Shown here: one piece after another, positions 2,511 through 31,030 of the stretch
Layout of the letters: each line of letters opens with the position of its first letter
Position numbering within the stretch: the first letter of the stretch is position 1
From: Chiloscyllium plagiosum
Lineage: Eukaryota
Direction: 5' to 3'
DNA length: 64,000 nucleotides
NCBI RefSeq assembly: GCF_004010195.1
Contig: NC_057716.1
Coordinates: 45,040,525-45,104,524, forward strand
Translations under genes and position numbers: made by a program
Notes under the pieces: generated by a model
What the model saw: the letters and a program-made list of their open reading frames with translations, nothing else
Databases searched by the model: none
What the model was told of the DNA's origin: nothing

Positions 2511-2645
2511 AGTTCTGAAGGAGGGTCACTCAACCCGAAACATGAACTCACATTTCTCTCCACAGATTCTGTCAGACCTGGTGATGCCTTTTCCAGCAAT
2601 TTCTATTTATGTCTCTGATTTACTGCATTGACAGTTCTTTGGGTA
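2511..2645 (+). mobile_element. Short repeat of the hammerhead-bearing family (degenerate)
   Basis: AGTT-CTGAAGG-A-GGGTC-ACTC-AACCC-GAAAC-ATG-AACT followed by the family body. Confidence 0.7.
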
Positions 2646-3756
2646 GTTAGATATTTTGTCTTTTGTCTTCACCGAACAATATTGACATCAAATCTCAATG
2701 GGTGTTGGACAAACAAGGACTTGGATCTTATCAGTGTTTTTTTATTGGCACCTCACCCTATACATCAAGACTGTGGCTGTCTGAAATTGTCAGCCAGCGA
2801 AAAGGCACAACACTAGATGTTAATTGGACTGATGCACCAACATACTTAGCAAAGGACATTGGACTTGTAATAGGTCACATGGGTAGGCCAGCCAAGTTTG
2901 TAACCTGTCTTTACAAAAAAGCAGAAGTTGTCCTGGAATAGATATATCTGAAATACCATCTGGATTGTTATCAAAGCAACACAAAGACCACTACACAACA
3001 AGTAAAATGCAGTTTGAAAGTGGAGAACATCTTGTCAAAACCTTATCCAATTTTAAGTTCACCTGACATTCTAACAATTCAACTATATGAAACCTTCCTT
3101 TTAGACGAGACGAGAATTCTTTGCTTTTACAAGACCTCCTTTAAAGCAAAAATATTAGTGCATTGAAGAAACTTCAAGACTGCTATGAAAGAAACTTAAA
3201 TAATTCCAAATTGTGAGCATTTTGTTTTTCTTCGTCTGTTAGCTTTTTTTTCTGTATATGATAGTGTGTGAGATATAATGTTCTAACCCTATGAGGTAAA
3301 GGTGTGAAGATAAATTTATTTTTTTAATTTACAAAAGTGTACTTCTAGACTCATTTAAATTGGTACATAACACTCTAAGGGGAAGAAAGCACAATAACAT
3401 AACAAAAACAATTTGATCATAAACAGTAAAAGATATAGGTTCTCTAAATAGCCTGAGCCATGGAGACAGTGTTGGGAAATCTGTGAGATGATCAGTGAGG
3501 AGCTTCTCAATGTCAAGAGCAAAAAGTCACCTTTCCCAAACAAGTCTTGGTTGGCAAGACAAGATGTTTAAGGCAAGAGGGTAAAGATGTACTAAATATT
3601 GCATGCGCTAATATCTCATTATTAGTTAATCTTGCCTCATTTATGTGCAGTTTTCCATTCCCACAATGCCAGGTAGAAACTAGATGGTGACAATTCCTAA
3701 TATGAAAGTCAAAGTGGTTACCTGGAGACTTCAGGCTCACCACTTGCTCGCCGTAG

Positions 3757-4932
3757 AATCATAGAGTCATAGAGATGCACAACATGGAAACAGACCCTTT
3801 GATCCAAATTATTCATGCCAACCAGATTACCTAAATAAATCAAGTCCTATTAGTCAGCATTTGCTCCATACCCCTCTAAACACTTCCTATTTGTATACTT
3901 GTCCAGATGCCTTTTAAATGTTGTTATTCTATCAAACTCCACCACTTTTTCTGTCAGCTCATTCCATACACGCACCACCCTCTGCATGAAAAAGTTGCAC
4001 CTTAGATCCCTTTTAAAGCTTTACCCTTTATCCTTAAATGCTTGCCCTCCAGTTTTGGTCTCACCCATCCAGGGAAAAAGACCTTGTCTATTTACCCTAT
4101 CCATGACCTCATGATTTTATAAACCTTTATAAGGTCACCCCTCAGCCTCCAACACTCCAGAGAAAATAGCCCCACCCTATTCCGACTCTTCCTATCGCTC
4201 AAACTCTGCAAAACTGGCAACATCCTTGTAAATCTTTTCTGAACCCTTTCAAATTTCACAACATCCTTCCAACAAGAGGGACACCAGAATTGCACACAAT
4301 AATCCAAACATGGCATAACTCCCCAGGACCTTATCATTAAGTGTATAATTCCTGCCCTGATTTGCCTTTCCAAAATGCAGCACCTCATATTTATCTAAAT
4401 TAAACTCCATCTGCCACTCCTAGGCCCATTGGCATTCTGATGAAGATCCATTGTACTCTGAGGTAACTTTTTTTGCTGTCCAGTACACCTCCAATTTTGG
4501 AGTCACTGGCAAACTTATTAACCATATCGCCTATGTTCACATCCAAACCATTAAAAAATAAGTTTCCTTTAAGATGGGTGATATTTTTTAATGAAAATAT
4601 CACATGACTTTGACAATTTCAGCTGCAGTCCATTTCTGAAATCAGAAATCACATAACATCAGGCTATAGTCCAACAGGGTTTATTGGAAATCACAAACTT
4701 GCAGCACTTTGAAAGCTTGTACAATGGACCCAACACCAATCCTTGTGGCACACCACTAGTCACAGGCCTCAAATCTGAAAAGCAATCCTCCACTACCACC
4801 CTCTGTCTTGTACCTTCAAATCAGTTCTGTATCCAAATGATTAGTTCTCCTGTATTCCATATGATCTAACCTTGCTAACCAGTCTACCATGAGGTACCAT
4901 GTGAAACATCTTACTGAAGTCCATAGAGATCA
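3757..4932 (-). mobile_element. 5'-truncated CR1-clade LINE with 3' tail, interrupted at about 4553-4719
   Basis: ORF remnants YCVQFWCP..KDVVKFERVQKRFTRM..LFSLE..RLRGDLIKVYKIM and NKFASDSKIGG. (CTATGACT)-type tail at about 3757-3775. Confidence 0.85.
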
Positions 4933-4989
4933 AACCAAGTACCAAAATCTCAGGCACACTCCATTGTCAGCAATCATATGCATTGGAGT

Positions 4990-5082
4990 CAAAAAGTGTG
5001 GCATTGGAAAAGCACAGCAGGTCAGGTAGCAACCAAGGAGCAGGAGAGTCAATATTTTGGGCATGAGCCCTACATCAGAAAT
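4990..5082 (-). mobile_element. Degenerate copy related to 18909-19032
   Basis: Minus strand CTGATGT-A-GGGC-TCAT-GCCC-AAAATATTGACTCTCCTGCTCC...CTGACCTGCTGTGCTTTTCCA. Confidence 0.65.
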
Positions 5083-5549
5083 ATCATATCCATCCCCCAT
5101 CCATGCACCTTGGCATCTGACACATAAACAGCCTCACCTCGTCCTAATGACACATTTCTGAACCATTTACAGTACGGTCTACACTTCAGTGCTTCACCTT
5201 GGAATGCATTGGTAAATATTATTGCAAGCTTGCTGCCAGGACAATTAGCATGTAGGGACAGGTACCAATCTCTTAGTTTCATCCTGGATGCAGCTCAAGA
5301 ATACTCACTCACTCCTTTCATGCCTACCTCAATGTTTTGCCTTGCTTTAACTTTTTGTCCTCTGGGTCTTCACCTGGAATTTAAAAGCTTCCAGTATCTC
5401 TATCATGGCTTGCCCTTTTAATGCAGAGATAAAGTCAGGCAGGTTAATACAGTTTCCAACAATAACTAGTCGGGGGTGGATATTTGCTGTACATCATCAT
5501 GCTCTGTCAATGTCACACATGCATCAAGTACCAGTGAATATGTGCCAAA

Positions 5550-5662
5550 TACTGCATTTGAAATATTTACTCAGTTTCTCTTTCCACAATTGCTGCCAGG
5601 CCTGCTGACTTTCTCCAGCACTCTGTGTTTGTTTCAGATTCTGAGCATCTTCATTATATTTT
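5550..5662 (+). mobile_element. Degenerate 3' fragment of the same short repeat family
   Basis: TTCTCTTTCCACAATTGCTGCCAGGCCTGCTGACTTTCTCCAGCA matches the family body. Confidence 0.55.
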
Positions 5663-6629
5663 CGTTATTCAAGTGAGAGATGATTTTACATTCAATAGTG
5701 AGAGTAGTAGATTATGAGCATTGGTGGGCTCAATATAATAGTGCTATCTGTAATAAAAACTTCTTTTAAAAGGAAATTACACAGTGTGCTAGTTTTACTT
5801 TTGAATACCTGTGGAATCTGATGTCAATATTTAATATTTGTGCTAATGTAATTTGTAAATATGTATGTGTGTATCATTGGTACAACTGAAATTTTTATAT
5901 TTTCTCTAAAATAAAATACTCTTAATTTACTAACATGGTGCTAGATAGCAGCCAGACCTATAATTTACCCTTGCTGTTTCAGAAAAGCATGATCAGTGTT
6001 TTACAAATGTGATATAATGTTTTTGACCAGGAAGTCATTGTGAATCATGGAGAAAAAAGAGATGATTTTTATTACTTCCTTACTTTCTGACCAAAGAAGT
6101 AACATTTGCTTTAGTTGCTGTTTTTGGTACTCATGTGCTTACTTTATCGATCATAAACAGTAGCATCTAGAGATGAGATGTGCATTTTTTAGCTGCTATG
6201 TTATCAGTTCATGCAATAGTGCAATTGAAATCAAAGTAATTAAATTTGAACAATATTATTTCCATAAAGGTTAAGTGATCAGGATGTGCAATGAGGAGCA
6301 ATCAATAAACGTATCAACAAAGAAGACAATAATATTTCTGTACAACTTTTTCATCAGTAAGCCATAGGACATTCATCATTAGTGGGATAGGCTGGATTAG
6401 CCTTTGTTTTCTTATATGGGTATAGATCACATGGTTTAGGTGGAATTCTAATGTAGAGCAGAAAGGCCTGTAACAGTGAGAAGACAAATTGCACGTTTTG
6501 GAAACAAAATTCCAACTTGTCGTGTAATGATCCATTCATATTTTCTCTCTGACCCTAGTAACTGCCTGATCATTCTCAAAAGTGAGAAAACTGCAGCAGT
6601 AGATAATAAGCAATGACCCTGTTGATGAA

Positions 6630-6712
6630 TTGGAGGTGTCGATGTTGGACTGGGGTGTACAAAGTTAAAAATCACACACCACCAGGTTCTCGTCCAACAG
6701 GTTTATTTCGAA
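6630..6712 (-). mobile_element. Fragment of the palindromic repeat family
   Basis: Reverse complement matches 12485-12560. Confidence 0.65.
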
Positions 6713-7273
6713 GACTCCTCGGTAATGCATTCGAGCTATTTTGAACTGTGAATATTCTTGTATTCACTGCAGCTGCTTGTTTACAAATAGCTACTTAATG
6801 GCTGACCCTGTCAAGATACCTGTTGAAGACATGGTACCTTTCAGTTGTGTGTTTAAACAAAAACATGGCTAGTAGCAGTTGAATGGAGTCCAGTTTTGCT
6901 TTACACTTGGACCACTGGGACGGCGTTGGCTGTAGTTCCCTAAGTAATTTCAGAATTGGAGAACTTTGTGAAGTATAACACACAATTGGGGATCCGCTAA
7001 TTTTTTTTATATAACTCTACTGATTATACAAATAGTAGTTTAGCTCATGCTCGTTATTGAAATATAATCATTAAAATACATGACGTTAATATTTTGAAGA
7101 CTTAATTGATTCATAAATTGAATCTTTTTTTATCGCAAGGCTAAATAAACATAAATAATACCTCGCGCCAGTTCCGTCGCCGTGTGAGATTTAAACTTAC
7201 ATTATTATATAGAAAAGAAGTCTGTACTTTCTGTGTGTATAGGAAATTGATGGAACCAGTCATGTTAATTATT

Positions 7274-7413
7274 CTGTGGAAGGGTCACCAGACCCAAAAT
7301 GTTAAATTTGATTTCTCTCCACAGATGCTGTCTGACCTGCTGAGCTTTTCCAGAAACTTCTGTTTTTGTTTGTGATTTACATACAGCATGCGCAGTTCTT
7401 TCGGTTTTTATTT
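7274..7413 (+). mobile_element. Short repeat of the hammerhead-bearing family (degenerate)
   Basis: 12-bp TSD ATGTTAATTATT at 7262-7273 and 7414-7425. Homologous to 18350-18490. Confidence 0.75.
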
Positions 7414-7769
7414 ATGTTAATTATTGCAGATGTGGGCAGTCAAAAGTTAGTCATTCTATAGGAACACATATGAATGAATTTGTTTCTTCGAAAGACGCTC
7501 GATTACTATCTGCGAATCAAAATGTGTAAAGCAAACACATGAACAGACTTTCTGTAGAATCATTGGATACTGGTTATACACATGGTTCTTGAATTTAAGT
7601 CGACAGGGTAAGATAGTTTATTCCTTCAGACTTGTTTAGGATAAATTGCACTGCTGATCAGTTTTATCGTATAACGAAGGGAATTGAAGCAGTTATTGCT
7701 ATTAAGTTAAGATGTTTATATACTATAACCATTTTACGCTCCAATTGTCTTTATAAGAAAAAAATAACG

Positions 7770-8145
7770 TGCATTTATTCAACCGTCCTGAGCTCAGGGC
7801 GTCTCAAAGTGCTTTGCAGCTAAATGACGTGTAGTCACTGTTGTGATGTTGGGAAAGTCAGCAGTAAATTGGCGCACGGTAAGATCCCAGGAAGAACCGT
7901 CAGATCATGTGGATTTCTGTTCCGCCTCCACAGGTCATTTTTAGTGCTGCTGGTTGATAGATAAGTATTAGCCAATACTGGAACACTCCCCAACTCTTCC
8001 ATGAATTGTGCCGTGGGATGTTTTGGGTATACCTGAAAGGGCAGATAACATTTGGTTGAATATTTCGGTCTAATTCTCATGTTCGTTATATGCTCAGAAG
8101 TCCTGCAGCGAGTTTTAAACCCTAATTCTTCTGTCTCTAAGACTG
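7770..8145 (-). mobile_element. Old DeuSINE (SacSINE1/AmnSINE-like)
   Basis: CAAAGTGCTTTGCAGC..GTGTAGTCACTGTTGT..GCGCACGGTAAGATCCCA..GTGCCGTGGGATGTTTT resembles the Deu-domain SINE consensus as recalled. Confidence 0.6.
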
Positions 8146-9267
8146 AATTAAATGTATAATTTATTTGATAACAGTAACATAATGTTTAAACGTCGAACAA
8201 AGTATTTGGACGGATCGTGTTTTAACGAATGAGTAAGCACATGAATACATAGACACAATTGAACATTAGAGAGATACAATCGCGAGAGCTTTCGGCTGAG
8301 CAGTGACCCAACCTACCTTCATCCAATTCCATCATTGTAATCCTATGGGCCCCTTCGTCACATATATCTGAGCCTTCCTCTAACTGCAAGAATACCCGAG
8401 AATCATCGCAGCCAGTCACTGCTGAATCCTGGTGTAAGAATGTGATTTAATGTGGCATTAACTAATTGCATATTGGTGCCTTGTTTAATATAACAGAAAC
8501 CTAGCAGCCGCACAATTCTGTAACTGAACCTTTTTTTGTCGATTCTGTCATTTCGCAATAAGCACCTTAAAACAGGCTTCACGTGTTTAAAAATGAATCT
8601 TCTCAATTATTGTAAAGTTTCTTAAATAAAAACCAGCTCATTGTGGATATAAATGGAAACTTAGCCAGAATTCTCCAGTGACCTTTCTTCCGCAAGAATG
8701 CGGGTTAGCTAAATTATCTTCGATCCAAATTATGACATACACATGGAAACGAACGTTTGAACCCTCGGTGCAAACATTGTTCAAAACGCTGATTCGCGTT
8801 GGAATACTGTTAGTGGTCTCATTCGGAAAGCCGGGCGGATACAATGGGCAGAATGGCCTCCTCTTGCTCCTTGTGTTCTGTTGTGTATTCTGTCTGTTTT
8901 TCTGTGACCAATAAATTGCAAGAAACTGCAAAAGTATTTATGAATACCAAAATTGCATTCAGCTACGGCATATTTACCTTTATAATAGCAATTAACAGTA
9001 ATATATAAAGCTGAATCCGACACAACTACGTATTTTTAAAAAATATTTGGGGATTACATTGTTTCCATTTTTAGGCATCCGGTGCTATTTTCAAATACTT
9101 CCAGGTCGGATAGAAAGCTTCGCTTTATTTGATCTCGAAATGATGCTCTGTTACACGTTTCTCCACTTTCCATACGAAGTACATGGCCGCTCCTAGTGAG
9201 CTGCCAGCAAGTGTCGAATTAGAATCAGTTTGGTGCAGCAGATTGGTGACAACTGCATATTAAATTC

Positions 9268-9553
9268 GTGGGTGGCACAGTGGTTAGCACTGCTGCCTCA
9301 CAGCGCCAGAGACCCGGGTTCAATTTCCGCCTCAACTGTCTGTGTGGAGTTTGCACATTCTCCCCGTGTCTGCGTGGGTTTCCTCCGACAGTCCAAAAAT
9401 GTGCAGGTTAGGTGAATTGGCCATGCTAAATTGCCTGTAGTGTTAGATGAAGGGGTAAATGTAGGGGAATGGGTCTGGGTGGGTTGCTCTTCGGAGGGTC
9501 GGTGTGGACTTGTTGGGCCGAAGGGCCTGTTTCCACACCGTAAGTAATCTAAT
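9268..9553 (+). mobile_element. tRNA-derived V-SINE (HE1-like)
   Basis: A box TGGCACAGTGG, B box GGTTCAATTTCC, V-domain TGTGTGGAGTTTGCACATTCTCCCCGTGTCTGCGTGGGTTTCCTCC, and CR1-like tail GGGCCGAAGGGCCTGTTTCC. Confidence 0.85.
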
Positions 9554-12371
9554 ATAAATGCAGCCTGCCCAAACTGTCTTTAGGAAGGGCCCCTACAAAC
9601 CCATTCATCTGACAACATTGGATTTGAGTTTAGATGCCAGAGGTCAGTGCCTAATCAACTGAATCTACCCACCCCACCGAACTTTCCAGGTTTCAAGGCA
9701 AATAAGATGTTTAGAATATGAATTGACAAGTTGGTGCATCCTGATTATTTTAGTTTAATATATCCAGAAACGAAAGGCCGGTGGCAGTGGGGAGAATTAT
9801 AGTCTGCTTGTATTGTAGTTGGGGGTAACACCTCATTCAATACTACGTGCATAATTCAAAATAATTTGTAGACCCCAAATGGGAATCGTTGAGTAAAATA
9901 AATACGAGTAATTGTTTCATGTCTGTCAATTTGGAAGTGAATTGTATTATGATTATTCAAATAAGCAGACGTTCACAATTACTTGCTCTGAAAGGAGACA
10001 AGAGAGATGGCTTAAAACTGCGCAAGAAATGTCAAATAGTTCGCCTCCTTTACTCCAAAAATGATTTTATTTTCGACCCTAAACATTCATTTCGCTCCTG
10101 AAATTGTGAAACTATTGTTTCCGAAATCTTCTTATACTTTAACGGTGCGCTGGGGTATTTTGGTAGAACTCATAACAGGCCAGAGATTAGAGGAAGGGTA
10201 GTGTCTCTTCCAACATTGAAGAATTTCTCTGTGGTTCGAATAGGTCGGATCACATAAGAAATTGCTATTATTTCATTATTTTTAAAATACGTGCTGGGAT
10301 CACGCAGAAGCTTTGTAATCTACGCTTATGACTGTTAAATAGAGCTTTGAAAGTTTGTATCGGAGCGGCATATACAAGGCACGCAGTGATTTTCTGATGA
10401 CTTTGTAAAACATATTGATCAGGAGGTTTGTGCCACCTAACCCCTGGCAAATCGAACTTCAACGCATTCCTTTCTACAAAAGGAGAATGGGAATGTGAAG
10501 CTTATCATTTTTGTTTAGCAGGCATTTCGCTGATTGCCGGGAGCAACATAGTTACGGTGCACTTATTGATGCAGGTCATGTTTGGATTAATCCACACTGA
10601 TCGGAATGTACTTGATTCAAATTATCATTCCTTTCCTATATAAAATCCAAGCACTTCCTATAGAAAATGTTTACACTGAATATAACTACACTGCCAAACT
10701 TTACTTACCAATTTCATCACGTTTAGAATACTAATCCGTTTTTCTACCCTGTACTTTATGTTCTACGTTCTTCAGATTTATCGAATTTAATTAATTATTA
10801 AATATGCTGATTTGACACAATGACTCATTTAGTCTATCATTGGCATCAGTCTTTCACCAGAGCTAACAAATTCTGCTAAATCAGAACTGTTTGTTAGTGC
10901 ACGCTTTCAAGTTGAATTACTTTGAATTTTAATGCAAAGATGTTCATCTTTATTGTGCTGTTTCTGTTCATACTGAACCACATTTTAACTAATCCCAGCA
11001 GCAGAGGATACTGCAATTAACTCTTGCTACTGAGTTGCTACAATGCAACCTGCCGATAACAAATGAAGCTTGTCACAATCCTGACAGATTAACTAGTCAC
11101 TTTCTTAGTGGTTAATGTCTGCAGAACAAATCTAAAATTTAACAGCCGACAAGAAGGAATGGCGATGGATTTCTTTAAGCAACCCATTTGCAGGATGATT
11201 TGGAGATGCCGGAGATGCAAATGTTGAACATTTGCAGGATGAGCAGAGTATAGTAGTCCACTTATAAGTCAATTCTTAACCCAAAATATACATAATGTCA
11301 AGGGGTGTTTCTTGCCACTAGTAAGGCCCATGCAAATGAATACATGTTTCAAAGGGTGAAATGAAGCGACTTAACGAAACACATGCACAGAGTTGTTATC
11401 ACATGGAACAGAGTTGATGTGACAATGTGCAATTTCGACTTGCTGGTCCTGCTGACCAAATTTAAACTCAGCGCACGTTCTGTTTGCAGACTCTATGTTT
11501 CAAAAATCTAATTGGCTATAATCTGACACAACGTCATTGGAAGCTAATTGATGTCGCGCTAATTGACGAAGATTGACTCCTTGTTTCCTTGTGGTTGACT
11601 TATTTTTATTTAAGAAAGCGATACCAAAGACAGAGTTGCAAGTCGAAAGCAAATTGTTAAATTAACTGAAATGGTCACACAACATTGAAATTGGATAGCT
11701 GCCAATCTATTCACTGTATAACGAATAAATACGCCAACCACCACATGTAGCAGGTGTCAATATGTAAATTCCATTGTCAATCCTATTATACACACAAGGT
11801 GACTACTGTGCTGTAAAAGGGAATGGTCGGAAATATCAAGAGTCGTATCAGGAGCAATTCTCTTTACATCGGATTACATTGTGTAACCATGAACTAAAAC
11901 CGTAGTGTCGGCACTACGATGCTATACATCTGTATGATGGAAGGCAAGATAATGAAATGCTTTCATTCAGTCTTGCTATTGGCTGTAAACTACAGATTGG
12001 TGCGATAAGTAGCGCGGAATTGGTGGGATTGAAATACTTCAGTTTGCTAGAAGGATGCAAAGTGTATATGTCTAACAACTTTTAACATATTTAGTTGTAT
12101 AATTTCTCAAACATTTATTTAGTTACGATTTGATGTTGTGTCAACAAGTTGAATTTCCGGCCTCCTGAATTTACGTAATGTACGTCAAAATTCTCACTGG
12201 ACAGCCCGATGAAATAACTAATTGCTCAAAGAGTGCCTTAATCCGGTGACAGCTACAATGTAAATAAATACCAAAATAAACAGGAGACAAACGTTATTTG
12301 TCAACATTCATTATCTGAATAATCCGCGTGTTATAATAGGGAAGAGCCAATGAAATGTTACCACTCTACAT

Positions 12372-12567
12372 AATTAAAAATCACACAACACCAGGTTATA
12401 GTCCAACAGGTTTAATTGGAAGCACTAGCTTTCGGAGCGTCATCATCTGATGAAGGAGCGTCGCTCCGAAAGCGAGTGTGCTTCCAATTAAACCTGTTGG
12501 ACTATAACCTGGTGTGTGATTTTTAACTTTGTACACCCCAGTCCAACACCGGCATCTCCAAATCATG
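12372..12567 (+). mobile_element. Palindromic short repeat, probable Penelope-derived element with hammerhead core
   Basis: About 65-bp inverted arms within 12374-12526. CTGATGA-A-GGAGC-GTC-GCTCC-GAAAGC at 12447-12473. 9-bp TSD ACTCTACAT at 12363-12371 and 12568-12576. Confidence 0.75.
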
Positions 12568-13291
12568 ACTCTACATCACCACTGGCTGATTCGAACAGTT
12601 TTTATGGCTGTTCTGCTCGCACCCGAAAATGCCCAGCTAATGGTGATATTCGTTAGACATTTCTCCGGTAAACCGGTGCATTTTAAACAAAACGGATAGT
12701 TCTGCTTTCGAATGGTTTTATGATTGCTTTTACAGTCTTGGAGCATAGAACTTTACTTCCTGCAGCATGCTTTCTATGTGACACTGGGTAAAAATGTCAC
12801 TGGAGACAAACAAAAAGGATGTTTTTCCTGCTCCAAAACGCTTACCACATATGTGTATGATTTTTTTTATTACAAAAACGAAACTCAGAAGTTGATCTAT
12901 TAATCTAACAGCCTAGTTAATCTTTAAATATGCAAGTTTTAGAGAAAAATGCTACAGCGAACAAATAAAACTGCATAACGGGTAACAGCGAATACCCATC
13001 AGCGGTACGTTCTTATTATTTGCCATTAGGTTTTGCTGGTATATTAATTGTTCGTCAGTCATAAAGTGACGTTAAATATTCATACATTCCGTGCTACAAT
13101 GAGCTTTGAACTTTAATAATATATGAAGACAAGCTTGCCTTAATTTATGCCTTCAAACATGTAAAGCAAGTTGGTGGGAAAAGCTCATACAGATATTTCA
13201 CGTCTGATATTGAAACATCTTTACTAATACATTGATCGCAAAAGAAATGGCAGACGCCTAGGGATCGATCTAGATCGTTTTGGTTCTCTCA

Positions 13292-13308
13292 TGAACTTTC
13301 AGTGAACC
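13292..13308 (-). promoter_or_regulatory. DR5 RARE 3' of HoxD1
   Basis: caGGTTCA-ctgaa-AGTTCA about 3.1 kb 3' of the HoxD1 stop, compared with the Hoxa1 3' RARE caGGTTCA-ccgaa-AGTTCA. Confidence 0.8.
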
Positions 13309-17673: not shown

Positions 17674-17784
17674 TCTTCCAATGACGGGCTGCAGCAGAAT
17701 AAGATGCGTTGCTTTAGTTGATTGCTGTCTATCTCTGATCACCATAGCAGATTTTTCACTTCCTTCGCAAAGGAAGTAAATATT

Positions 17785-17830
17785 CCTAATATAGACCAAG
17801 GCAGGCACGTGGCTCCAGCCACCCAATCAG
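17785..17830 (-). promoter_or_regulatory. HoxD1 proximal promoter (CCAAT + E-box + TATA-like)
   Basis: CACGTG 17806-17811, CCAAT 17823-17827, and minus-strand TATATTAG near 17793. Confidence 0.6.
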
Positions 17831-18349: not shown

Positions 18350-18490
18350 AAAAAAAAACCGAAGGAACTGCGGATACAGTAAATCGGAAACAAAAATATA
18401 AGTTGCTGGAAAAAACTCAGCAGGTTTGGCAGCATCTGTGAAGAGAAATCAGAGTTAACGTTTCGGGCCCGGTGACCCTTCCCAGAACAG
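18350..18490 (-). mobile_element. Short repeat of the hammerhead-bearing family (core mutated)
   Basis: Minus strand CTGGGA-A-GGGTC-ACCG-GGCCC-GAAACGTTAACTCTG...CACAGATGCTGCCAAACCTGCTGAG. Confidence 0.75.
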
Positions 18491-18908
18491 TTATGTGCTA
18501 TTTTTCTGTAAAATCATACTAACTGGCATAATAACCAGGTCCATGAAGTAAATAGTTACATTAAGAGATATGTTTATGACATCGTTAAAATTTCGAAGTG
18601 TTTAATAAACGTCCAAAGTACAATTGCCTGGCCGGTGTACTTGTGACTTTAGAAATCCTACCATCAGACCCGTTGAACCCTCTTTAAACAACTAGAGAAG
18701 GCTGACCGTCCCCTTACCAGGGATATAAAGAATATAGAGCTTCCTTCCTTTATAATCGGCAACCTGTCAACTTTCGTTAATAACACCGGACGTTGTATAA
18801 TACCAGAAATATGCTTACATCAGGAATCAACATGTTTCAACTAACTTTTTAACACAAATGGCTGACACAAAAGGTAAACGCGTTAATGACTGGGTTGTTT
18901 ATTTCACC

Positions 18909-19032
18909 TGATGAAGGGCTTTTGCCCGAAACGTCGATTTTGCTGCTCGTCGGATGCTGCCTGAACTGCTGTGCTCTTCCAGCACCACTGATCAGAATCT
19001 GGTTTCCAGCATCTGCAGTCATTGTTTTTACC
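18909..19032 (+). mobile_element. Short repeat with hammerhead core, probable Penelope-derived
   Basis: Perfect 14-bp TSD TTGTTTATTTCACC at 18895-18908 and 19033-19046. CTGATGA-A-GGGC-TTTT-GCCC-GAAACGTC. Confidence 0.8.
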
Positions 19033-22000
19033 TTGTTTATTTCACCACCCATTCTCAAGTAATTTGTCCTGGTTTGTACATCCCTCTATGTCATGCTACA
19101 GAATAAAGTTAAATGGTGTGACCATACGAACTGCAACGTATCACTTTTGTTAAGGCCAAAATGCAAAGTCTGATAAATGAAATCTCGAACTGAACAATTA
19201 CAAGTGCTACGGGAAATTTATAAGTAAATCGAAGTATTTGAATCGTTTGGCTATTAGGTTTCTGAATATTTTCCCCTGGTCTATTTCCGTGATAACGGTT
19301 GACTCAAGAGTCATTTACCTGTCAGAACATTCAGTAACGGAGCTCTAACTCAAAGTCAGTTGATGTGAGTGTGTATAGCACAAGACGACTTGCTCTGTTT
19401 AATCGCCAGGGGCAGTGTGCAGTCAAATTCATATCAGCAGCTTGTTAGGTGCCGTGTCATTAACTCATGCATTTGGTAAAACATAGAATTAGAGTCGTTT
19501 GAACGAAGTTTCTCCATTCATATAAAGAGCAGGGAATATATATTCGGTATTTCACATTCGGAATCTAAAACCCATCTACCTACAGCACAACGTGTCTATT
19601 TTGCCCATCTTTTTGATTAGCACTTTCTGTCTGTCTGTGTATCTACAAGTGAATACTTCTCATTGTACCTTATTTTTAAGTAAGCATCAATATGAGAGAG
19701 GGTTTCAGTAATGACATTCCAGTTGCTTTTCTGTTGCTCGAATTATTGTGTTACATCATATAAAAACCTGCCTCGTTCGTTTTGCGGTCAGCAGTTTTAA
19801 TCTGATCTTGAAAAGCTATGTTATGTATAATTCAGGGGGAAGTGAGTTTAAAGGCTTTGAAAGCGTACAGTTGCCGCGGGATTTGCAAATGACTAAATTT
19901 GCAAATCAGCATATGCATCGGGCCTTCCTATTGACTTCATAATTGTCTTATTTTGTTAACATATCTTTGCAGTTTTTACTTTAAAAGATATATGCTAAAT
20001 CATATATATGGCATAACTTTTTTCGAATAACATGTTAACAGCAATATTTTAAAATAATCGGTCATTGCACAAATTATGTTTCTGTTTAATTACAATGTAC
20101 TAATATTGAGTCCTATTTACCAGATTTCTTAAAATTAGAAATTGGTACAAAGTACCAAACTTTGTTATAGCTATATGGTATATAATCCACTTCTTTCAAA
20201 TGCAATATCAATCATTAGTGACAGATTAGATGAGCTACTGCCTGGAATAGTAATGTAAATGAAATACCTGTTCATTTCGCTGATATCACAATCTAAACAT
20301 TGGCCTAAACATAGAACACAAAATTACTAAATGAATATAGTAAGCTTTCCATATGCGAACTTGTATAATAACACGTTATGGTTTCTAATTAGAACATTAC
20401 AAAGCTTTATGAATTATCATTGTGTTTGTTTACGTGGAGTTTATAAATACAAAATCAACACATTTCAGTTTCCACAATTTCTTCTGAAGTTCATGGGTTC
20501 CATTTTGAAATAATGAAAGAATTTGATTGGAATATTGTTTTCTTTTGACAGTTGCACGCAATACTTCCGTGCAATTTAACTGATTATTTAGTCATTTAAG
20601 TTCATCACACTTAACTATGTTTTTTGTTAAGGATGGACAGTTTCTGACTCGTATATTTGGTAACTTTTGTCAGCACTCGACTATTCTTCGAAGTGCAATC
20701 AGCTCTGAAAGTAGATGATGTGGTTTATACTGTTCAGGGGCATATGATTGAAGGTAGCCTCGTGTAAACGGTCAGAAGAATACTGCAGACTTGTTTTAGT
20801 CGAATGTGTGGAGTCATTGAAGTAGAGTGCGGAACCATTTCCAAATCGGAACGTGTTTCTGCATTTATACGGCACGGTAGTTTCATATGTTCACTTCAGT
20901 AAAACCTTATCGATTTGCATGTTGGATCATCAAGAATCTTGAGCAAACCGGACCTGGCTGTCCTAGCAGCACCGAGCCAAAGATTCTGTGGCAAGCGTCT
21001 TCCAAATAAACGTCAGGATTAATCTATGGTTTCTTAGGACTATTTCATGCTGTAACTTGTGCACGATCTATATCTGAGATTTTACACAGTGTCCTGCTTA
21101 GAACCTGGCTTTTCATAAGGTTAGCTTCCATCTTAGCCTTGTAATATGTTGACCGGGATGTATGGAGCGGTTGGGGATGGTGGAACGGGAGTAGTGGGGG
21201 TCAGTGATGGTGGTGATGACGATGGCCTTCAATCTCTGAACGTGACAGGGTAGGACTCAAAATCAATTATCGAGAAAAGTACCAGGACTGTTTTGCACTT
21301 TTTGAAAGTTGTCACCAGTCTCAGGTTTGTTTTGAACTGACTGCGCGTTTTCTGCATTTTGTTTTGGTGCGAGTTGCCATTAGCCGTTCTACATTCGCAA
21401 ATAGAGCTGAACCTTTGTCGAGCAACAGCACGGAAGTGCATTCAAAAAATATAGAGATTGCACTGAACCAACTGTGCAAGCAACTAGATTAGCTCACCAT
21501 TAACTGGTCTGTGGATCGACCAGAGCAAAAGTGGGTTGTAAATAAAATATAATGTACGAGGTTTTATACGTTAGGGATTCCTGAAAACACATCTATTAGT
21601 GACATGTTTTAAAAGGTTAACGTAAATGACCCAATACCACAAATGCAGTCATACATGACAATAATTTAAGCACACATAGCATTCTCAGCTGAGCCAAGAT
21701 TTCTGGTGCCCTTGAAACGTTTTACCCTCTTTAACGAGCAGTAACGAGGGATCGCAGTTAGACTCCAGATTTCTCGAAGGTTAGTCATACAGGAGGTATC
21801 GTCTGTGGTGTGATTAGACTGGTGCGTGATTCGCTTTTGCATTTGTCCGCCTTGGCAGCGGTTGCTGGAGGGATCCCAGCTGGCCTTGGCATGCCTTAAA
21901 GAGGGAGGAACTGCTGTCGAGGGAAAAGTGCAGATTTCATGATTGATGAACTCTTAACAATACCCCACTGACAGCTATGCATCCAGACAGAGCTGCAAGT

Positions 22001-24650
22001 CTTTCAGCAAAACTCCCTGTTTGTTGGTGCGTTGTTTCAAATTCCAAATGAGCTTTCCTTTTCATTTACAATTGCACTTTTGCAGCCATCACTTTTGCAA
22101 AATGAACGGAAATATTGGCTGTAAATATATCAGGTGGTTGCTCACATAAACATGAAATATGATGACTGATCTTGCTACCACGTGATCCTTTACTCAAGTG
22201 TTCCTGGAGAGCTGCTGGTTATTACTAGGAACAACAAACACAAAACCTACCCTTCCTTTAGGGCTGAATGCTTCAAATATTTGGAAAACGTGCAATATTT
22301 TGTATTAATAGAAATAGTATAAACGTCATAATTTATGCAAGGTCAAAATGTCACTTGTTATTATGATTGAATTGTGAAGGCATGACCTCACCATAGCAGC
22401 ACCATAATACAACACATGAAATTGCAGAAAGAACTACATGAACTTTTAACTTATTCGACAGGCCTCAGAATGCAAAAATAAAGCGGCAAGGAGGCCGACT
22501 AGTATAAATAACTATACAGAAATTTGTTCCTTATATTCGGTATAGCATTCAAAACGAGACCTGGATTTTTCTTGCACAGATTTAAACCAAAATGTTCTGA
22601 ACTTATAATTCCAATAGTATTATCCGAGCGAATATGCGAACTAAAGTGCTTTAAGATCGCCATGTAAATAACTAAATCTAATACAAACTTTGGAACTTTA
22701 ATATTACAGCACTTAATCTTGAAATGCGAAAGGACAAAGCAAGGACTCCTCTAGCCTTTGCACATAAAGTGCACTGTCTTGTCTCATGTTAACAAAGCAG
22801 ACAGTTACGTTTAGAATGTTCACACTACGCTATTTTCCCTGCAAATGAAGTACATAAAATAAAAAATTCAAAAATTAAATATTTATTGGGCATTACAAAC
22901 GTGAAACTTGGGCGCTTTGAAACATATCTTTGTTTAACACAATAAAAAAGTCTGCTAACAGAATTCGCGTGGGTGTGTAAGGGAAATTGAGGTACTTCTT
23001 TCAAAATAGAGTGTTATTCTTTGTTTGATGACGCTTCAAGCAGACTTAAGTAAATGTTTTCCCCTTAATGAAACAGAAAGATAAATTGCATCTTGCCTTC
23101 GAAGTAACTCGTGAATTTCTGGGTTAGATTGTGATGCATTTTATTTCTCTTCTATATGCCATTTATAGGCAATAACATGCTCAATAGATTTCACCACATC
23201 GTGAATCCAATTGCTAAGTGGCTTAAAATACAAGAACTTTTAGATCAAATTGCAGCCAATTGTTTAGCAGGATAGATCTTATGCAACAGATTACATTTAA
23301 CTCTATTCAGTTGCTACAGTTAGTTATTTACTTATTCGGAATTTTTTTTCATGATGAAGTACATGTCATCTGGTAAATATAAACTAAATATCAATAAATT
23401 TTCCACCAGCATGAGCTTGATTTTAAACATCTTTCGGCAGCTGAAAATTTTGCACAGATATCCTATCTAAATCTAGTCGAATTGTTTTGGGTCTTAATAT
23501 TTCACAACTAGTGATAACCTATTGTGAATTTCTAAATAAAATCCAAGGAGAATAAAATTGTAACTATACGTGTTTCAAGCAGCCATCATTACTCGATCTG
23601 ATATATTTTATGATGTAGTTATAACATCACAGGTCTCACCACCGCGTCCTTGTTCGAACGCTATAGGTAGAGATATTTTCTTCATCCAACTCCTCTAAAT
23701 AGGATATAAATGCATTGATCTATTCAGCTCCCGGATTTGATTCGACTGAACAAAATGGCGTCTTTTATGGGTTTATGCCTCAGCCGAATTATGACATCCA
23801 TCGTGTGCTTGTGATTAGTACCAGTTTTTCCATTTCTGTAATGACGGAGTTTCTGAAAAACGATCAATTTGATTTTTCTGGGTGTGAATAGTCAGTCCTG
23901 TTGGCCTCCCTTTCCAATTTCCATGTCAGCTAATTAAATATTTGAAATTATTTTAGTATTTAAACTTAAGTAAAACCCTTGGCGTAGTTTGAGAAATCCA
24001 GTCTTATTGTTTATCAAAACCATATTTTCTTAAAGCATTAAATAGTTTACAGGCATTATTGGAAAATCGTGGAAGATGATCTACAATTTAATACACTTTC
24101 CATGACAACCAATATCTCCCTGTAAATAATTACATTTTGACATAAGCAATCGTTTTTATTCACTTGGTATTATTATCACTTGTCCTGTTTGGTTGCTGAT
24201 TATCTTTTCTTTTATTTTCTAGGAATATTGCTGATTGGAACTTTGGACGAAGGCAATTCAACTATTGAATTGAATGCAATCAGCAGTGTCTGGATATTTA
24301 CCTTTCCTTGCATATTTTCACGCTAATTCATATTTTTACACAAAGCTATTTTATAAATTGTATTTTAAAGATGTGTATTTAATTTTTGAAAATCTGTAAA
24401 TATTTGAAATATTCACCTTATTTAAAATAAAATACTGAAAATACTTTATTTTTTGCACTTCATGAAATTTCTCAGGACTCGTTTCATTTGATTCATAGCA
24501 GAATGACCACATGAGCAGGAGATCCTTAAAGTCTAGGATCAGTAGGCATGTAACAAATGCTATGACTTTCCATTTAGTAATATAGTTCTTGGAATTATCA
24601 CTGTTAAAGAATATCAACAGTGTTTATGTGCGCGTGAATTGGATGTCGAT

Positions 24651-25399
24651 CTAAAACTGCAATTGCTGAAAATCGGTGGAGTTAAAATTGTCACTTATAA
24701 AGTCAAACACGTTGGATGGAATAACTAGTGTGTCCTCGTTTTCCAACAAAGATAGTTGAGGTAATTCGTCTATCAGATTTAGATTTGGTTCGATTGTAAT
24801 TTTATCTAAATCCTCCAGAGATGGGATGCTGAAACTCTCAGGACTGCTAGGACTTGTTCCAGCCGAGCAGTTTTTCAGCATAGGTAGCAGGGAGTCAGTT
24901 TCATCTGAGCTCTGGGGGAAATAATGACAATGGGTTTCCTCGGTGCAGATCAGAGAAGTGCCAATAACAGTGAGCAGGTCACTGCTGATATCACTTAATG
25001 TATCTTGATGAGCAGAATCGCTAATATCTTGCTCAGCATTTTTGTCGCTCTCTAAAGAATTCAAAGTTTTATTTACAGGTGTCTCAGCAAAGCCTCTTGT
25101 GGAAAACCCATTCTGATTAACACTGTTAGCAAAATGGCGTTTTGAATCGGCGTTTTGGCTTTGTTTGAATCGAGTTTGTCTCTTGTGTTTCATGCGTCTG
25201 TTCTGAAACCAGACTTTGACTTGCCTTTCTGTTAGATCGAGAAGAGCTGCGATTTCTACCCTCCGTGGTCTGCAAAGGTAGCGATTATAATGAAACTCCT
25301 TTTCCAGCTCCAACAACTGAGTGTTTGTGTAAGTGGTTCGTAGTCTCCTGGAGCTGTCAAAAGGGCTCCCATTGTCCGGCTCATTAACCTCTTCGTTTT
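24651..25399 (-). CDS. hoxd2: HoxD2 coding exon 2 (homeodomain)
   Basis: Acceptor TTTCCCCTCCCTACTGCAG|AA. Homeodomain [60 protein letters not shown]. Hox2-type C-terminus TDFQQLQF. Spliced product 363 aa. Confidence 0.93.
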
Positions 25400-25795
25400 C
25401 TGCAGTAGGGAGGGGAAAGTTTCGATAAGTTATCACAAATCTTTGCGAATAATCCTGCAACATAAAATGGCCGCCTCCTAGACACAAAAGGCTTCCAGCA
25501 GAAAATGGCCCAGCAGGGCAACTGAAAACAGATACAGATGTCTGGAATTTGCTTATGTGCAGGTCATTGATACTCACAGAATACCAGGAGTTCTGTAGGC
25601 TCGAGTAAGCACTGTTTACATTTTGAATATAGTTGGGTATGTGCGTTTTTCAGGTCTGACATCTTTCAGTCAATGAAACATTTATTACAGCTTCAAAATG
25701 TAATCCTTTATAAAAATATTCTCTGCTCACCAAATATGACCACAACCTCCGTTCCCCCCCTAAAAAAAAGTAATGAAATATATGATGGACCTGAC

Positions 25796-26138
25796 CTTCA
25801 TTAGAAGAACAAGATGAGAATGATCCCGTTGCTTGGACAGTTTTTTTCTTGTGGCTTTTCTTTTCTCTCATCCACGGATATTCCAGAGGTTTGTCCCTTA
25901 ACGTGGCCCGACCAATGCTTTTTGAAGTGTGCGTTTTCTCATTTTGGTTTGTGTTACCATGGTCCAAGCTTCTGAAGCTCTGCTCAAAAGGAGGAGGAAT
26001 CAGTGTCGAATGTGAAAGCGTCGAGTTCTTGATTGATGAACTTTGAAATGTCTCGCCAACAGGAGGAAAGGATGTCAGGCACTCGGCAAGCGATGGTTCA
26101 CTATTGATAAAACCAACCTCTCTCTCAAACTCGTTCAT
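25796..26138 (-). CDS. hoxd2: HoxD2 coding exon 1
   Basis: Paralog-2 N-terminus [27 protein letters not shown] and hexapeptide EYPWMREKK. Donor GAAG|GTCAGG, phase 1. Confidence 0.92.
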
Positions 26139-26209
26139 TTCTGCCCAGGCAGAATCGGTAGAAAATTGCTTATTAGATAGTTTCTTTGAAAATGTATATT
26201 TATATAATA

Positions 26210-26325
26210 TACTGATTACTAACGCTAAGGGACCGTGCTATTATTAAACTATGTCTATTGAATACACAGACACGATGTTGAGATGAGGCTGATTTTATCG
26301 TCACATGATCGCATTAACCAATGAC
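26210..26325 (-). promoter_or_regulatory. HoxD2 promoter and conserved Hox2 leader
   Basis: CACATG 26302-26307 and CCAAT 26318-26322. Leader ATAGTTTAATAATAGCACGGTCCC resembles the Hoxa2 leader as recalled. Confidence 0.55.
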
Positions 26326-29250
26326 AAGGGTGGAAAATAAGACTGGCTTTCTGAATGATTCTGAAATAAAATATATAAAGGTGTAGGCAGCATTTCCCTG
26401 TGGTCTCCAGGCCATGTTTATACTGTGAAGTAGTACAAAATCATTTCTACAAGATAGCAAGTGTACAGTACTATTACAAAGCATCCTGCATCACTTGGTG
26501 GGTGGTTTTAGCCCTGAGAAGAAAAGAACACTCAAGTCTAGATTTCTGCCTACATATGTGTAGCGTGGAGTAATAAACGACAAATCAATTAATCTTCGGA
26601 GCTGTGACATTCATCGCAAGGTTCTACGGTGTGGAAGAATGAATACAAGCTGTGGTCAGAGCAGCACCCTGGACAGTAGGAGCTGGCAGCGAGGCCCACT
26701 GCCAAGTAGAACAGGATCATTTTCAGACGGTCCCTGGATTTTAACATGAATATTAAAAGATATTGTAAACTTTTTACAACTCCACCCCCTCAGAAATGGC
26801 TTAGAGTGTATTTTTTGCACTCTGAACAAGTAGCATCTCACTTTCTCCATCTGGATCAGCACGCCCTGTTTACAAATGACTCCCTGTTCATATGTTATTT
26901 GTTGACTTCATAAACACCCACAAGCCAATGATTTAAATATTTGCGAAGTAACATCTCGCGGATTCTCCTTGAGCACAGCTGTTGTGACTTATGAACTTTC
27001 CGCATTTTAGAGCATCGACTGTGAGTTATTTGACGTTTAAAACCTAAAGGCTGCTCTTTCTGTAATCTGTTATTGGCAAATTAGTAAACGCAATATTTGC
27101 TATTTTGCTCTGCTCACATAATACAAAATGTTTGCGATTAACAAACATTAAACCCCAGTTAAAATGCATCATTATATTTCTTTTTGTAATACTAGCCAGT
27201 TGGTCTGTGGCTTACATAAAATTGATGCGTTAGACTTTTTCTCCTTCTGTCTGATTGGAAAGACAACATTTTGCATTCCTTGACGAGTGGGTGGTGTACT
27301 AACAAAACAAGGTTCTGTTCCACTTTGCGGCGTTGGCGTTCATAATAGGCATCTTTAAAATAGCAACAATCAAAGGAGCTGTGTGCGGGGCATTCGAACA
27401 ATTCTACGTTCATATTTAGCATTTGCTTATGGTCAGGAATTTTTAGTAAATCAGGAGTTTACACTGAGGAGAAATTATAAGTGGTACGCTGACTTCAAGC
27501 TCTAAAACCGTCAACAAAACCTTAGATTGTGGTCTTCGTCAAGCTGTTGAGGTTTTCAGATACCTTCAGGCCCACTTCCTTATTTCAAATAATGACATTA
27601 CTTTCGACGGCTTGGAGATATCTTTGTTTGTTGCCAGAAGGCTTTCAGCGCCCCAGCTTTATTTGTCAAACAAAATGGCGCCGCATGTGTCGGGGTTGCG
27701 GGCTGCTGCTGTGGAGAGAGACAGCAACTAATGTCTGGGACTAGGCTCCCTGTCGCAGGCACCTGACATGGGGCACTTCGGAACACGGTTTTCTACATAA
27801 TAGTGTTGACGCCTTCATAAGATAACGGTAACAGATTGGGATTTATTTTTGGATTTATTCCTGTGTTTATCAGATAACTGCTATGGCAATGTTCACTCTT
27901 TTTATTGGATTGATTGCTCTTCGTGTATTTTGAAAACAAACGCTGTTAACTTTTTCCTTCAATGTCTATCAATGGAGATATTACATTCCAACGACTGTTA
28001 AATTCGGAAAAAAAAAACAAACGAAGTAATAATGGATAATATCAGTTAAAATGTACATACTTGCATCCTAGTTTGCTCTGTTTTATTTATCTCTTGCTAG
28101 TTGACTACATTTCATCGCGATCTAACTTACACAATTGCTCCCCCCCGCTCAACCTTTTCCTTTTCATTATTCTATATGCCTGATTCTTTACGTTTTATGT
28201 CTTATGAGACAATGGTGAGCACAATACAAAAGCGTCGCAATCGTTTTTCATATTATTTCAACATATCATTGGAAAATGCAATATATTGTTTTGCATATAT
28301 ATAATATATATTTAATCAGACCACAGCTCTGCCGAACATCACCAGTCATTGGCTGGAGTCAGCTTGTCTTGTATTAATGAGAAGTGAGGAGACAAGATGG
28401 CGAAGCATACAGCTGGAATGGTGCATATGCATTTATAAATAAAGGCTCCGGGTTTATTCAAAGAACACATTTTTATTCTAAATATCTTTTGGAATAGTAC
28501 CAGACAATTGAAATAAAGTATTCTTATAGAAATGTGTCGTCTATTGTGTAGTGTCACATATTTTCTGATGTACTACAATCATAACTTACAATTTGCTTTC
28601 AGAGATAACCCTTATATAATCTAAAAACACCAGCCACTGATACAACTGCTCAAAAAAACTATCCTCTCATCTAGTTTCAACCCAGGTTTACTAAAGGGAA
28701 GAAATATGATTGTAACAGACATGGATCAAACAGGTTAAAGTCAGATTGTATAAGATCTATAAATCTCACATAAATACATTAAGACGAGGATAAATAAGTA
28801 ATAGAAAAATCTTCTTTTCTTTTCGACTTAAAATAATAAATACATATTATTGATGCTCAATTCAGTTCGTTCATTACTGAGAAGTCCAGAGCTGAAGTTC
28901 TGGGTAGTTAGACCAGTTACGGTCAGAATCCACCAAAGTGGAGTTTAGAATTACCAGTCTTTTAAATTCCACATTAAGAAGGGTTGCTGAAGACTGACTT
29001 CATTATGTCTTACCTTCAAGAGCACCTATTTCAAGCAATTCTTCCTCTATTTGCATTCTGCATTACGTTAGGATCTTAACGAAAGGCATGGTCGACGTGT
29101 AGACCCTTAAATGAATACAGGAAAGCAATGTAACAGGTAGAAAGTGAATGGTGGACAAATACTGTGGCAGTCTGATAGCAGGAGAATATTTGATACAAAT
29201 GAGGTAATAAAAAAGCGAAGTGACATCGCTTGGCAAACCGTTCTAGCCCA

Positions 29251-29999
29251 TTACAGATGTGTTAGTTTGGGCGCTTCTTGAATTCTTCCCTGAGATGTGT
29301 GATGAGGAGTCAGATCTGTGTATGTAGGATGGGGATCACAAGGTCCATGATGATGATTGCCTGGTATTTGAGCAGCGCAGCTATAGTCCACAGTAGCTGA
29401 TGAAGGATGAGGAAGATGGCTAAGGTTGAACATGGGACCAGAAGCTGGCATTGAATCAACAAAGTTCCCTCCAACATATACAGGGCTGCCCTGCAAGTTA
29501 TGATTGGTAAAACTACCATTGCCCTGCAGAGTGTGATGATCGTACTCTGTGCCTGGGTACCTTTTTTGCTGGGGTAGGCAGCTACTATGTGGCGCAGTGT
29601 ATGCAGCCAAACCATACATATTTTGTTGGGATTTGGTGAATGATGTTGGCGAAGGAGCTTCGTAACTCAGACTGTTGACAGTAGGGAGCTGACTTGAGAA
29701 TCCAATATTATTTTGCGCGTTCAAAAGCGGACTTCTCTCTGGAGACTGTCCAACAGGAGAATGCATGATCCCTTTGGATTTTTGGTCTTTTTTATATTTC
29801 ATTCTTCTGTTCTGGAACCAGATTTTAATCTGGCGTTCAGTCAGGTTTAATAAATTTGCCATTTCAACTCTCCGAGGACGGCACAAGTAACGATTAAAAT
29901 GGAATTCCTTTTCCAGTTCCACGAGTTGTGCGCTGGTGTAGGCAGTACGGACTCTCTTGGAAGATGGACCTGGTGGACTTTTATCCTCACAATTGTCAC
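29251..29999 (-). CDS. hoxd3: HoxD3 coding exon 2 (homeodomain)
   Basis: Acceptor TTTTCATTTTGTAG|GT. Homeodomain [40 protein letters not shown]. Hox3 C-terminus [13 protein letters not shown]. Spliced product 410 aa. Confidence 0.95.
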
Positions 30000-30471
30000 C
30001 TACAAAATGAAAACAGTATGTTGGTTCCGATAAATAAACCTGGAAACAAGCACGCCCAGCCTAGAAACCCCACTGCATATTATCTTGACACTGAACTCGT
30101 GAAATAACTGCAAAGGGATTCTGTGACTATTTTGCTTTCCCCGGGCTATTTGAATATAAAGACATAGGTTACCATCTGAAGGGTAACATGCCGATGGCAG
30201 ACAGAAATGTGCTACAACTACAATAACACTCAAATAAGCATTTGACGACACTTCTTAATTACATCATTGGCAAGTTCTTTTTACGCCGTCCTAGACTCTC
30301 GAAAGGCGCTCGTTCACGCACGTTATTTATTTTCTTTTGGTATTGGCTGTTAGTGCTCTTTCCTAATTCATGAACGTTTATTTATGGACTGCTTTTTCGG
30401 AGATTCCACTGGAAGTTTCACTAACATCATAAAACAAGCATTTCACCTGAATCTATTTAAATGAAAAACAA

Positions 30472-30820
30472 CCATAGAGGTTCATAACATCATGAGTGGT
30501 AAGGATAGAATGGATAGCCAAGATCTTTTTTCCCAGGGTAGGGTAGTCCAAAACTAGAGTACTTAGGTTTAAGGTGAACGGAGAACGATTTAGAAAGAAC
30601 CTGAGAGGCAGACTTTTCACGCAGAGCGTGGTGCGTGTATGGAACGAGCTGCCTGGGGAGGTGAACGTTATTACAACATTTAAAGGGAATCTGGATGGGT
30701 ACATGAGTACGAAGGACTTAGAGGGACATGGCTAAATACTAGCAAATGGGATTAGATATGTGGCGACGCGGACGAGTTGGACCAAAAGGTCTGTTCCCGT
30801 GCTGCATGACTATATGACTT
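30472..30820 (+). mobile_element. CR1 LINE 3' end inside the HoxD3 intron
   Basis: Homologous to the reverse complement of 3757-4130 (IEV..IM.G.DR, FTQSVVRVWNELP). Ends GTGCTGCATGACTATATGACT. Confidence 0.8.
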
Positions 30821-30865
30821 TGTATTTAGTCTAATTTGTGAGGTTCTCTACCTTGGAACTGGAGG

Positions 30866-31030
30866 AACAAAATACTGCAGATGCTGGAATCTGTACTGAA
30901 AGCAACAAATGCTGGAGATCACAGCGGAAGTGAGCTCTGACGAAGTGTCATCTAGACTCGAAACGTTAGCCTGCTCTCTCTCCATGGATGCTGTCTGACC
31001 CGTTGTGATTTCCAGTATTTGTTGTTTTCA
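30866..31030 (+). mobile_element. Short repeat with inverted arms and hammerhead core, in the HoxD3 intron
   Basis: Inverted arms at about 30897-30928 and 30999-31030. CTGACGA-A-GTGTC-ATCTA-GACTC-GAAACGTT at 30937-30967. Confidence 0.75.

Follow-up and report, generated by a model that had tools for sequence, protein, structure and literature searches.

In a window of 64,000 nucleotides (nt) from the genome of the shark Chiloscyllium plagiosum (contig NC_057716.1, positions 45,040,525 to 45,104,524), short dispersed repeats carry the motif of a minimal hammerhead ribozyme. We consider it likely that these repeats are promoterless, neutrally decaying 3'-end pieces (pseudo-long terminal repeat, pseudo-LTR, plus tail) of at least four coding families of Penelope-like elements (PLEs), the commonest short form probably being the run-off cDNA of the first 90–130 nt of a capped RNA. 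The evidence observed directly comprises the family structure, the contiguity with reverse transcriptase (RT) and GIY-YIG frames, two sets of 3' ends, a pile-up of 5' ends at stem I, an upstream box, an extra G, duplicated target sites, and polyadenylation of RNA from family F2.

Link to Penelope-like elements

The derivation from Penelope that had been proposed in a sequence-only reading of the window was borne out, as long copies of four families (F1–F4) run upstream into Penelope-like RT/GIY-YIG frames; the repeats thus appear to be truncated element ends and not an amplified mini-element family. At the F1a locus L025, a GIY-YIG domain (Pfam E=4.9e-5) ends ~215 nt ahead of the motif, while at L188 a 5' motif is followed by an RT with YIDD, CX4CxxC, and GIY-YIG. 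Frame remnants lie upstream of the motif in F1b (L035, L036, L040, L053), F3 (L083), and F4 (L092, L107). F2 possesses its own RT-CX4CxxC-GIY-YIG frame, 29% identical to that of F1; at 7 of the 12 loci retrieved, the GGAGC motif follows downstream. With Pfam, GIY-YIG scored above the cut-off and RVT_1 below it (E=0.004–0.008), with YIDD seen directly; a PDB sequence search for PLE proteins gave no match.

In the frames of F1 and F2, RT and endonuclease are joined by a CX4CxxC linker, which falls within the CX2-5CxxC pattern that marks Neptune and Nematis (PMC8557442). By this linker, the four families would be PLEs of the Neptune type, with the reservation that Nematis shares the same linker.

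A further PLE family, F6, is found at L227, L269, L267, L287, and other loci (41 arms in 781 kb), none of them in the window. It has a linker-less endonuclease, which we take to be of the Poseidon type, a hammerhead with a longer stem II, a CA/UG stem I, TATAAA near -50, and frames that continue into the ribozyme.

Families and covariation of the hammerhead motif

Pattern counts were made over the 3.56-Gb genome. A relaxed core pattern gave 207,371 matches versus 1,238 for the reversed control, and targeted patterns gave 26,543 (GGG-type with ACGU), 1,523 (GGGUC), 633 (GAGUC), and 20,593 (GGAGC) matches, the reversed controls being 0; the GAGC/GCUC pattern is represented by 1,865 copies. In 780,863 unselected bases, downstream-only queries retrieved 238 arms (~305 per Mb), which, extrapolated from these 781 kb, corresponds to roughly one million arms genome-wide. 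The earlier suggestion of at least three subfamilies agrees with the at least four coding families found, which differ in their stem I and stem II sequences.

Covariation of stems I and II, likewise proposed earlier, is upheld at the genome level. In a comparison of 10 families, 65 of the 70 pairs in the stems are of the Watson-Crick type versus a shuffled mean of 30.1; none of 20,000 shuffles reaches 65, a figure that is not a true probability because the families are related. Stem II was partly built into the searches, while stem I, with 28 of its 30 pairs Watson-Crick, was not part of the search patterns. Pairs were counted on family majorities by an anchored script, since MAFFT set the F2 rows one column out of register. 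The stem I pairs read C-G/U-A/U-U or U-A in F1, C-G/A-U/C-G in F2, U-A/U-A/G-C in F3, U-A/C-G/G-C in F4, and A-U/C-G/variable-paired in F6. For the double change from G-C to A-U in stem II, the GAGC/GCUC copies listed are mostly uniform, whereas the single-change form with an A-C mismatch (2,826 copies) is a mixture of parental types; GAGC/GCUC with its compensated stem II is a real family.

The family-majority core CUGANGA/GAAA/UH is kept in all 13 tabulated classes, CTGA.GA and GAAA having been in the search pattern. A palindrome in place of helix III, as described in the sequence-only reading, is present in the family majorities and reads ACGU, with CpG decay to ACAU or AUGU, or AGCU (59 of 67 F2 copies); ACGU was part of the F1a query. 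Among copies reaching stem I, 45 of 123 retain core, palindrome, and cleavable base 17. Judged by every feature tested, the repeats are of the minimal type I hammerhead kind.

For this motif, the window by itself is weak evidence, while the genome is strong evidence. A strict hammerhead descriptor matched once in the window and in none of 12 shuffles; with one mismatch allowed, it matched once versus 0–2 times in the shuffles, and an Rfam scan of the window found no hammerhead model match at E<=5. The Rfam match to MIR845 at 12410–12493 was rejected, as it is merely the inverted F2 pair. All seven copies announced for the window are present at their positions and on their strands, yet none is flawless: the CUGANGA...GAAA core is exact at 12447, 18908, and 30937 only and damaged at 2515, 5078(-), 7274, and 18485(-), and the tetramer is an intact palindrome (ACGU) in three of the seven (18485, 18908, 30937). 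The AGCU assigned to 12447 occurs in the inverted arm, while the direct arm reads AGCG. Among the stem pairs quoted earlier, CAU/GUG and G(U)GUC/GACUC are copy-specific decay of the family pairs CAC/GUG and GAGUC/GACUC, respectively. Monomer folds of the seven copies did not yield the active three-way form. Downstream of the ribozyme, RNAalifold found 0 shared pairs among 12 copies, two of them truncated, and a single fold of 18904–19036 gave z=-0.63. Within the reading proposed here, the ribozyme appears to be inert in the window copies.

Where the copies begin

Copy coordinates are counted from the core base C3, and 5' junctions were mapped for 233 of the 238 arms. The ends are concentrated directly in front of the ribozyme: 77 of 128 arms at risk end at -12..-1 (0.050 per nt), as compared with 15 of 197 at the cut site, +26..+35 (0.008 per nt), 8 of 51 at -30..-13 (0.009 per nt), 0.007 per nt at +10..+25, and 0.003 per nt at +40..+59. 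For F1 and F2 copies of >=88% identity, the respective numbers are 28 of 64 (-12..-1), 5 of 94 (cut site), and 3 of 36 (-30..-13), and all seven window copies begin at most ~7 nt upstream of the core.

The junction mode shifts together with an upstream box and lies ~30 nt downstream of it. In F2, TATAAA at -38/-40 goes with a mode at -8; in F3, TATAAA or CATAAA at -33 with a mode at -4/-5; and in F1, a TTATCT-like box at -35..-37 with a mode at -3/-4, while F4 has an AT-rich box at -34/-35. Furthermore, the first non-native base is a G at 23 of 29 junctions placed at the predicted +1 A, versus 22 of 78 elsewhere (Fisher p=2.4e-6; 137 junction copies).

In four core-less copies (L293, L198, L208, L302, all minus strand), native upstream sequence is, by eye, apparently kept; one of them lost its core via a CTGA microhomology deletion. 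At the F2 loci L116, L125, and L127, upstream markers (TATA at -40 or -38) are mixed with downstream markers (GTGC or GTGTGC), which could reflect crossovers within the repeat or intermediate lineages.

3' ends, polyadenylation, and decay

The 3' ends form two clusters, at +80–100 and +120–135 (~+90 and ~+125), which agree with the tail of 30–40 bp and with the two sites of internal RT start in an Anolis element (PMC11167929). In RNA reads of F2, poly(A) follows +57 or +60 in 749 of 2,255 placed reads with strong strand bias, i.e., 12–15 nt behind ATTAAA and before a GU-rich stretch; these may be element transcripts or host transcripts borrowing the signal. ATTAAA or AATAAA occupies +38..+41 in 55 of 67 genomic F2 copies, and none of the 67 has an A6 run at the poly(A) position. 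F1c carries AATAAA at +76. Raw single-cell poly(A) reads on F1b fall on both strands and mostly run on into unrelated sequence, with no pile-up of starts or ends.

Core mismatches (57 of 1,230 sites) are as frequent as those of the flank (52 of 1,311; p=0.43), and G12, a CpG site, is hit in 37 of 123 copies. Selection on individual genomic copies was considered and rejected, given that the core decays as fast as the flank.

Proposed mechanism

In the proposed route, the hammerhead would constitute the first ~35 nt of the element's capped RNA, with RNA polymerase II presumably starting at the A that opens stem I (-4, or -8 in F2). The element protein would nick host DNA and start reverse transcription inside the RNA at ~+90 or +125, comparable to the Anolis element in vitro (PMC11167929). 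RT would then copy across the uncut hammerhead, run off the 5' end, and read the cap as an extra base, while a head-to-head inverted arm may arise from fold-back or a second priming event. The product would be left without a promoter and would decay, the ribozyme being kept by selection on active master elements only. Cutting is predicted to require either dimer formation via the ACGU/AGCU palindrome or the help of protein (PMC4209133, PMC11167929, PMC6765202).

Several points weigh against this route. The F4 junctions are scattered despite the box, the F1 box is not a canonical TATA, and the F3 upstream references are two copies only, so that a number of the older F3 ends may reflect mismatched subfamilies. 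By eye, an adjacent inverted or duplicated arm could have templated about 10 of the 23 extra Gs, with ~13/18 remaining. Of the 41 F6 copies, only 2 have their ends at -18/-22 and 1 at 0; given so few ends where the start is predicted for this family, run-off tied to the box is not a general rule. On the RNA side, reads on F1b or F2 show no pile-up of starts that would mark the RNA 5' end; AAUAAA/AUUAAA is absent within +28..+90 in F1a, F1b, F3, and F4; and the F2 poly(A) reads come from 2% of one run, the source organism of which is known by label only. Finally, head-to-head palindromes have been argued to mean self-priming on an antisense template (PMC3846280).

A more far-reaching version is tentative, and we regard it as doubtful: the shark Neptune pseudo-LTRs might work as true LTRs, with a U3 holding the TATA box, an R opening with the hammerhead, and a U5 consisting of the tail with the RT start. 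A strong-stop cDNA of 90–130 nt made on the 5' R would jump to the 3' R, two hammerheads of one RNA would pair via the palindrome and thereby join the ends, and the stubs would be failed jumps. R would end at the poly(A) site in F2 or at the ribozyme cut in the other families. As the F2 RT start sites lie past the poly(A) site, they would be present only in the 5' repeat.

Alternative explanations

The pile-up may instead stem from enzymology at that sequence (pausing of the RT or a fold-back where the ribozyme lies, or new DNA being nicked by the element's endonuclease) and not mark an RNA 5' end; we judge this unlikely. The Anolis endonuclease prefers ATT near the junction of open reading frame (ORF) and pseudo-LTR (PMC11167929), and F1 has ATT at -4, whereas F2, F3, and F4 have none at the junction. 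Inverted arms, noted already in the sequence-only reading, do lie beside many short copies (F1b 23/33, F2 16/28), as well as at the window pairs, and would suit fold-back; however, an RT would encounter stem I at the 3' side (~+30) and not at -4, the mode follows the TATA box, and the junctions are enriched in the extra G. F6 copies pass their hammerhead without a stop, and, with no pile-up at its ribozyme, the hammerhead alone does not stop an RT.

Somewhat less probable still are self-propagating, non-autonomous mini-elements derived from Penelope, resembling short interspersed nuclear elements (SINEs) or retrozymes, as which the short copies had originally been interpreted. Their fairly fixed length, the target duplications, and ~300 arms per Mb would fit, and PLE-derived tandem retrozymes are known, including one chondrichthyan (10.64898/2026.07.22.740005). 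This interpretation was not supported: no upstream box is present in the short copies, their 5' ends scatter over several nt with a gradual transition to ORF-bearing copies, and the cores decay neutrally, at the rate of the flank. Among 37 same-strand motif pairs, two are clear internally deleted F1a units (L012:1501-2130 and L030:1501-2305), each having two ends in direct orientation that carry the ribozyme, at a distance of 604 and 776 nt, respectively. Their junctions differ from each other, and the window contains neither tandem arrays nor tandem units with two or more intact motifs. L012 and L030 are possible seeds of retrozymes, while the window repeats, by these features, appear to be neither retrozymes nor an amplified mini-element.

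It is highly improbable that ribozyme cleavage gives the template its 5' end, as for R2 elements: although the cut-site bin exceeds +40..+59 and 2 of 19 junctions among those listed start exactly at +28, the bin is no higher than +10..+25 and six-fold under -12..-1, several of its junctions look like internal deletions, and cleavage is dispensable in vitro (PMC11167929).

The fourteen arms in the window

Repeats are usually kept out of Hox clusters. The window holds a Hox cluster with homeobox frames of paralogue groups 1–5 on the minus strand and mir-10 at 51540–51611; judging by the seed region of miR-10b and the N-terminus of Hox3, we take it to be the HoxD cluster of cartilaginous fish. 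A search with family references detected 14 PLE arms, as compared with the seven copies given earlier, and found no PLE reading frame in the whole window. All 14 lie within 2230–31030, at the 3' end of the Hox cluster, with none found past 31030:

2230..2400, arms 2230–2297 (minus) and 2291–2400 (plus): older F2-like inverted pair, core absent, overlooked in the sequence-only reading
2511..2652, plus: F3 PLE end, GGGUC/GACCC, stem I AGUU/AACU; -4 to ~+134; core damaged (A9>G, G17)
4639..4689, minus: F2-like arm, within the local duplicate of 2177–2280
4991..5082, minus: F1 PLE end, GGGC/GCCC; -4 to +86; damage in the core (A9>U, G12>A), AUAU as tetramer
5560..5670, plus: decayed F3 end, starting at ~+22
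6621..6713, minus: F2 end, +32 to +125, core absent
7272..7408, plus: F3 PLE end, -2 to +131; core damaged (A6>U, G12>A); 12-bp target duplication at 7262 and 7414
12367..12439, minus: F2 inverted arm, +15 to +88; AGCU tetramer and ATTAAA present, CUGAUGA absent
12442..12566, plus: F2 direct arm, GGAGC/GCUCC, stem I CAC/GUG; -5 to +123; core at 12447 exact, AGCG as decayed tetramer; ATTAAA at 12487–12492 as poly(A) signal
18355..18491, minus: F3 PLE end, -6 to +131; ACGU intact, one A of the core deleted
18907..19033, plus: F1a PLE end; exact core, stem II, and ACGU-C; 14-bp target duplication (18895, 19033)
30860..30927, minus: F4 inverted arm, +63 to +130, ribozyme core absent
30933..31030, plus: F4 direct arm, GAGUC/GACUC, stem I AGCU/AGCU; -4 to +94 with a G in front; core at 30937 exact, stem II with one mismatch

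Target duplications of 9, 12, and 14 bp accompany 3 of the 11 window insertions, the null expectation for 9 bp or more being 0.003; the 9-bp duplication flanks the F2 arm pair 12367..12566 on both sides (12363, 12568). At 18908, the 14-bp duplication reaches up to the first core base, so that the 5' strand of stem I is missing from this F1a copy. The direct F4 arm is situated inside the Hox3 intron, antisense to Hox3. With the inverted F2 arm at 12367–12439, an ATTAAA comes to lie on the Hox strand; at ~4 kb downstream from the Hox1 frame, it could act as a poly(A) site for read-through RNA.

Other repeats were seen in the same region. A local duplication (2177–2280 and 4586–4689, 87%) takes in host flank and the F2-like arm. 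A tRNA-derived SINE-like repeat, which presumably resembles shark HE1, has two copies in opposite orientation (9272–9385 and 31686–31797), and a further dispersed repeat occurs at 3866–4079 and 30527–30731 in inverted orientation, the family-reference search not identifying it as a PLE end.

Relation to known systems and meaning

By every feature tested, the RNA motif and the element belong to known kinds, and the finding as originally given appears mostly ordinary. The minimal hammerheads of metazoan PLE pseudo-LTRs (PMC4209133) share the absent helix III, the palindromic 15.1–16.1 tetramer, an extra base between 9 and 10.1, the G10.1-C11.1 pair, a short helix I, and several covarying families per genome; there, too, most are solo motifs of truncated PLEs with some opposite-strand pairs. 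The numbers differ (~4,000 in coelacanth and ~9,000 in Xenopus, obtained by a different search method, versus the pattern matches counted here), and the accessible portion of that source names no shark and reports no 5' pile-up, extra G, or poly(A) use. Endonuclease-bearing Neptune elements (PMC8557442, PMC3846280) are alike in RT, CX2-5CxxC linker, and C-terminal GIY-YIG, heavy 5' truncation, an adjacent inverted copy, and an optional 30–40 bp tail; for the pseudo-LTRs of rotifers, TATA and Inr-like motifs have been noted in the same sources, which, in the passages cited here, do not place the transcription start relative to the ribozyme. The Anolis Poseidon element PAc (PMC11167929) likewise starts RT internally at two tail-defining sites and uses uncut RNA as a template, but belongs to another clade, with an ORF that starts inside the ribozyme; in the shark, the Poseidon-type F6 has no 5' pile-up. 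Non-LTR retrozymes (10.64898/2026.07.22.740005) are also PLE-derived with type I hammerheads, yet form tandem arrays with at least two complete motifs, whereas the window copies are solo or head-to-head. A literature search, with limited coverage of subscription papers and Repbase, returned no account of shark PLE hammerheads, of a start site at the ribozyme, or of strong-stop copying in PLEs.

Pieces beginning at the front edge of the motif, likely because the element's RNA starts at that edge, would be a testable clue to how these elements copy themselves. The genome's roughly one million footprints predict a start site, a cap-derived base, and, for one family, a used poly(A) site, which opens the question of PLE copying to direct testing. 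In addition, poly(A) signals are spread over the genome by the stubs, a Hox cluster's 3' end among the places reached. If the LTR-like cycle were true, they would be a base-resolution record of PLE replication, and the ribozyme would gain a job.

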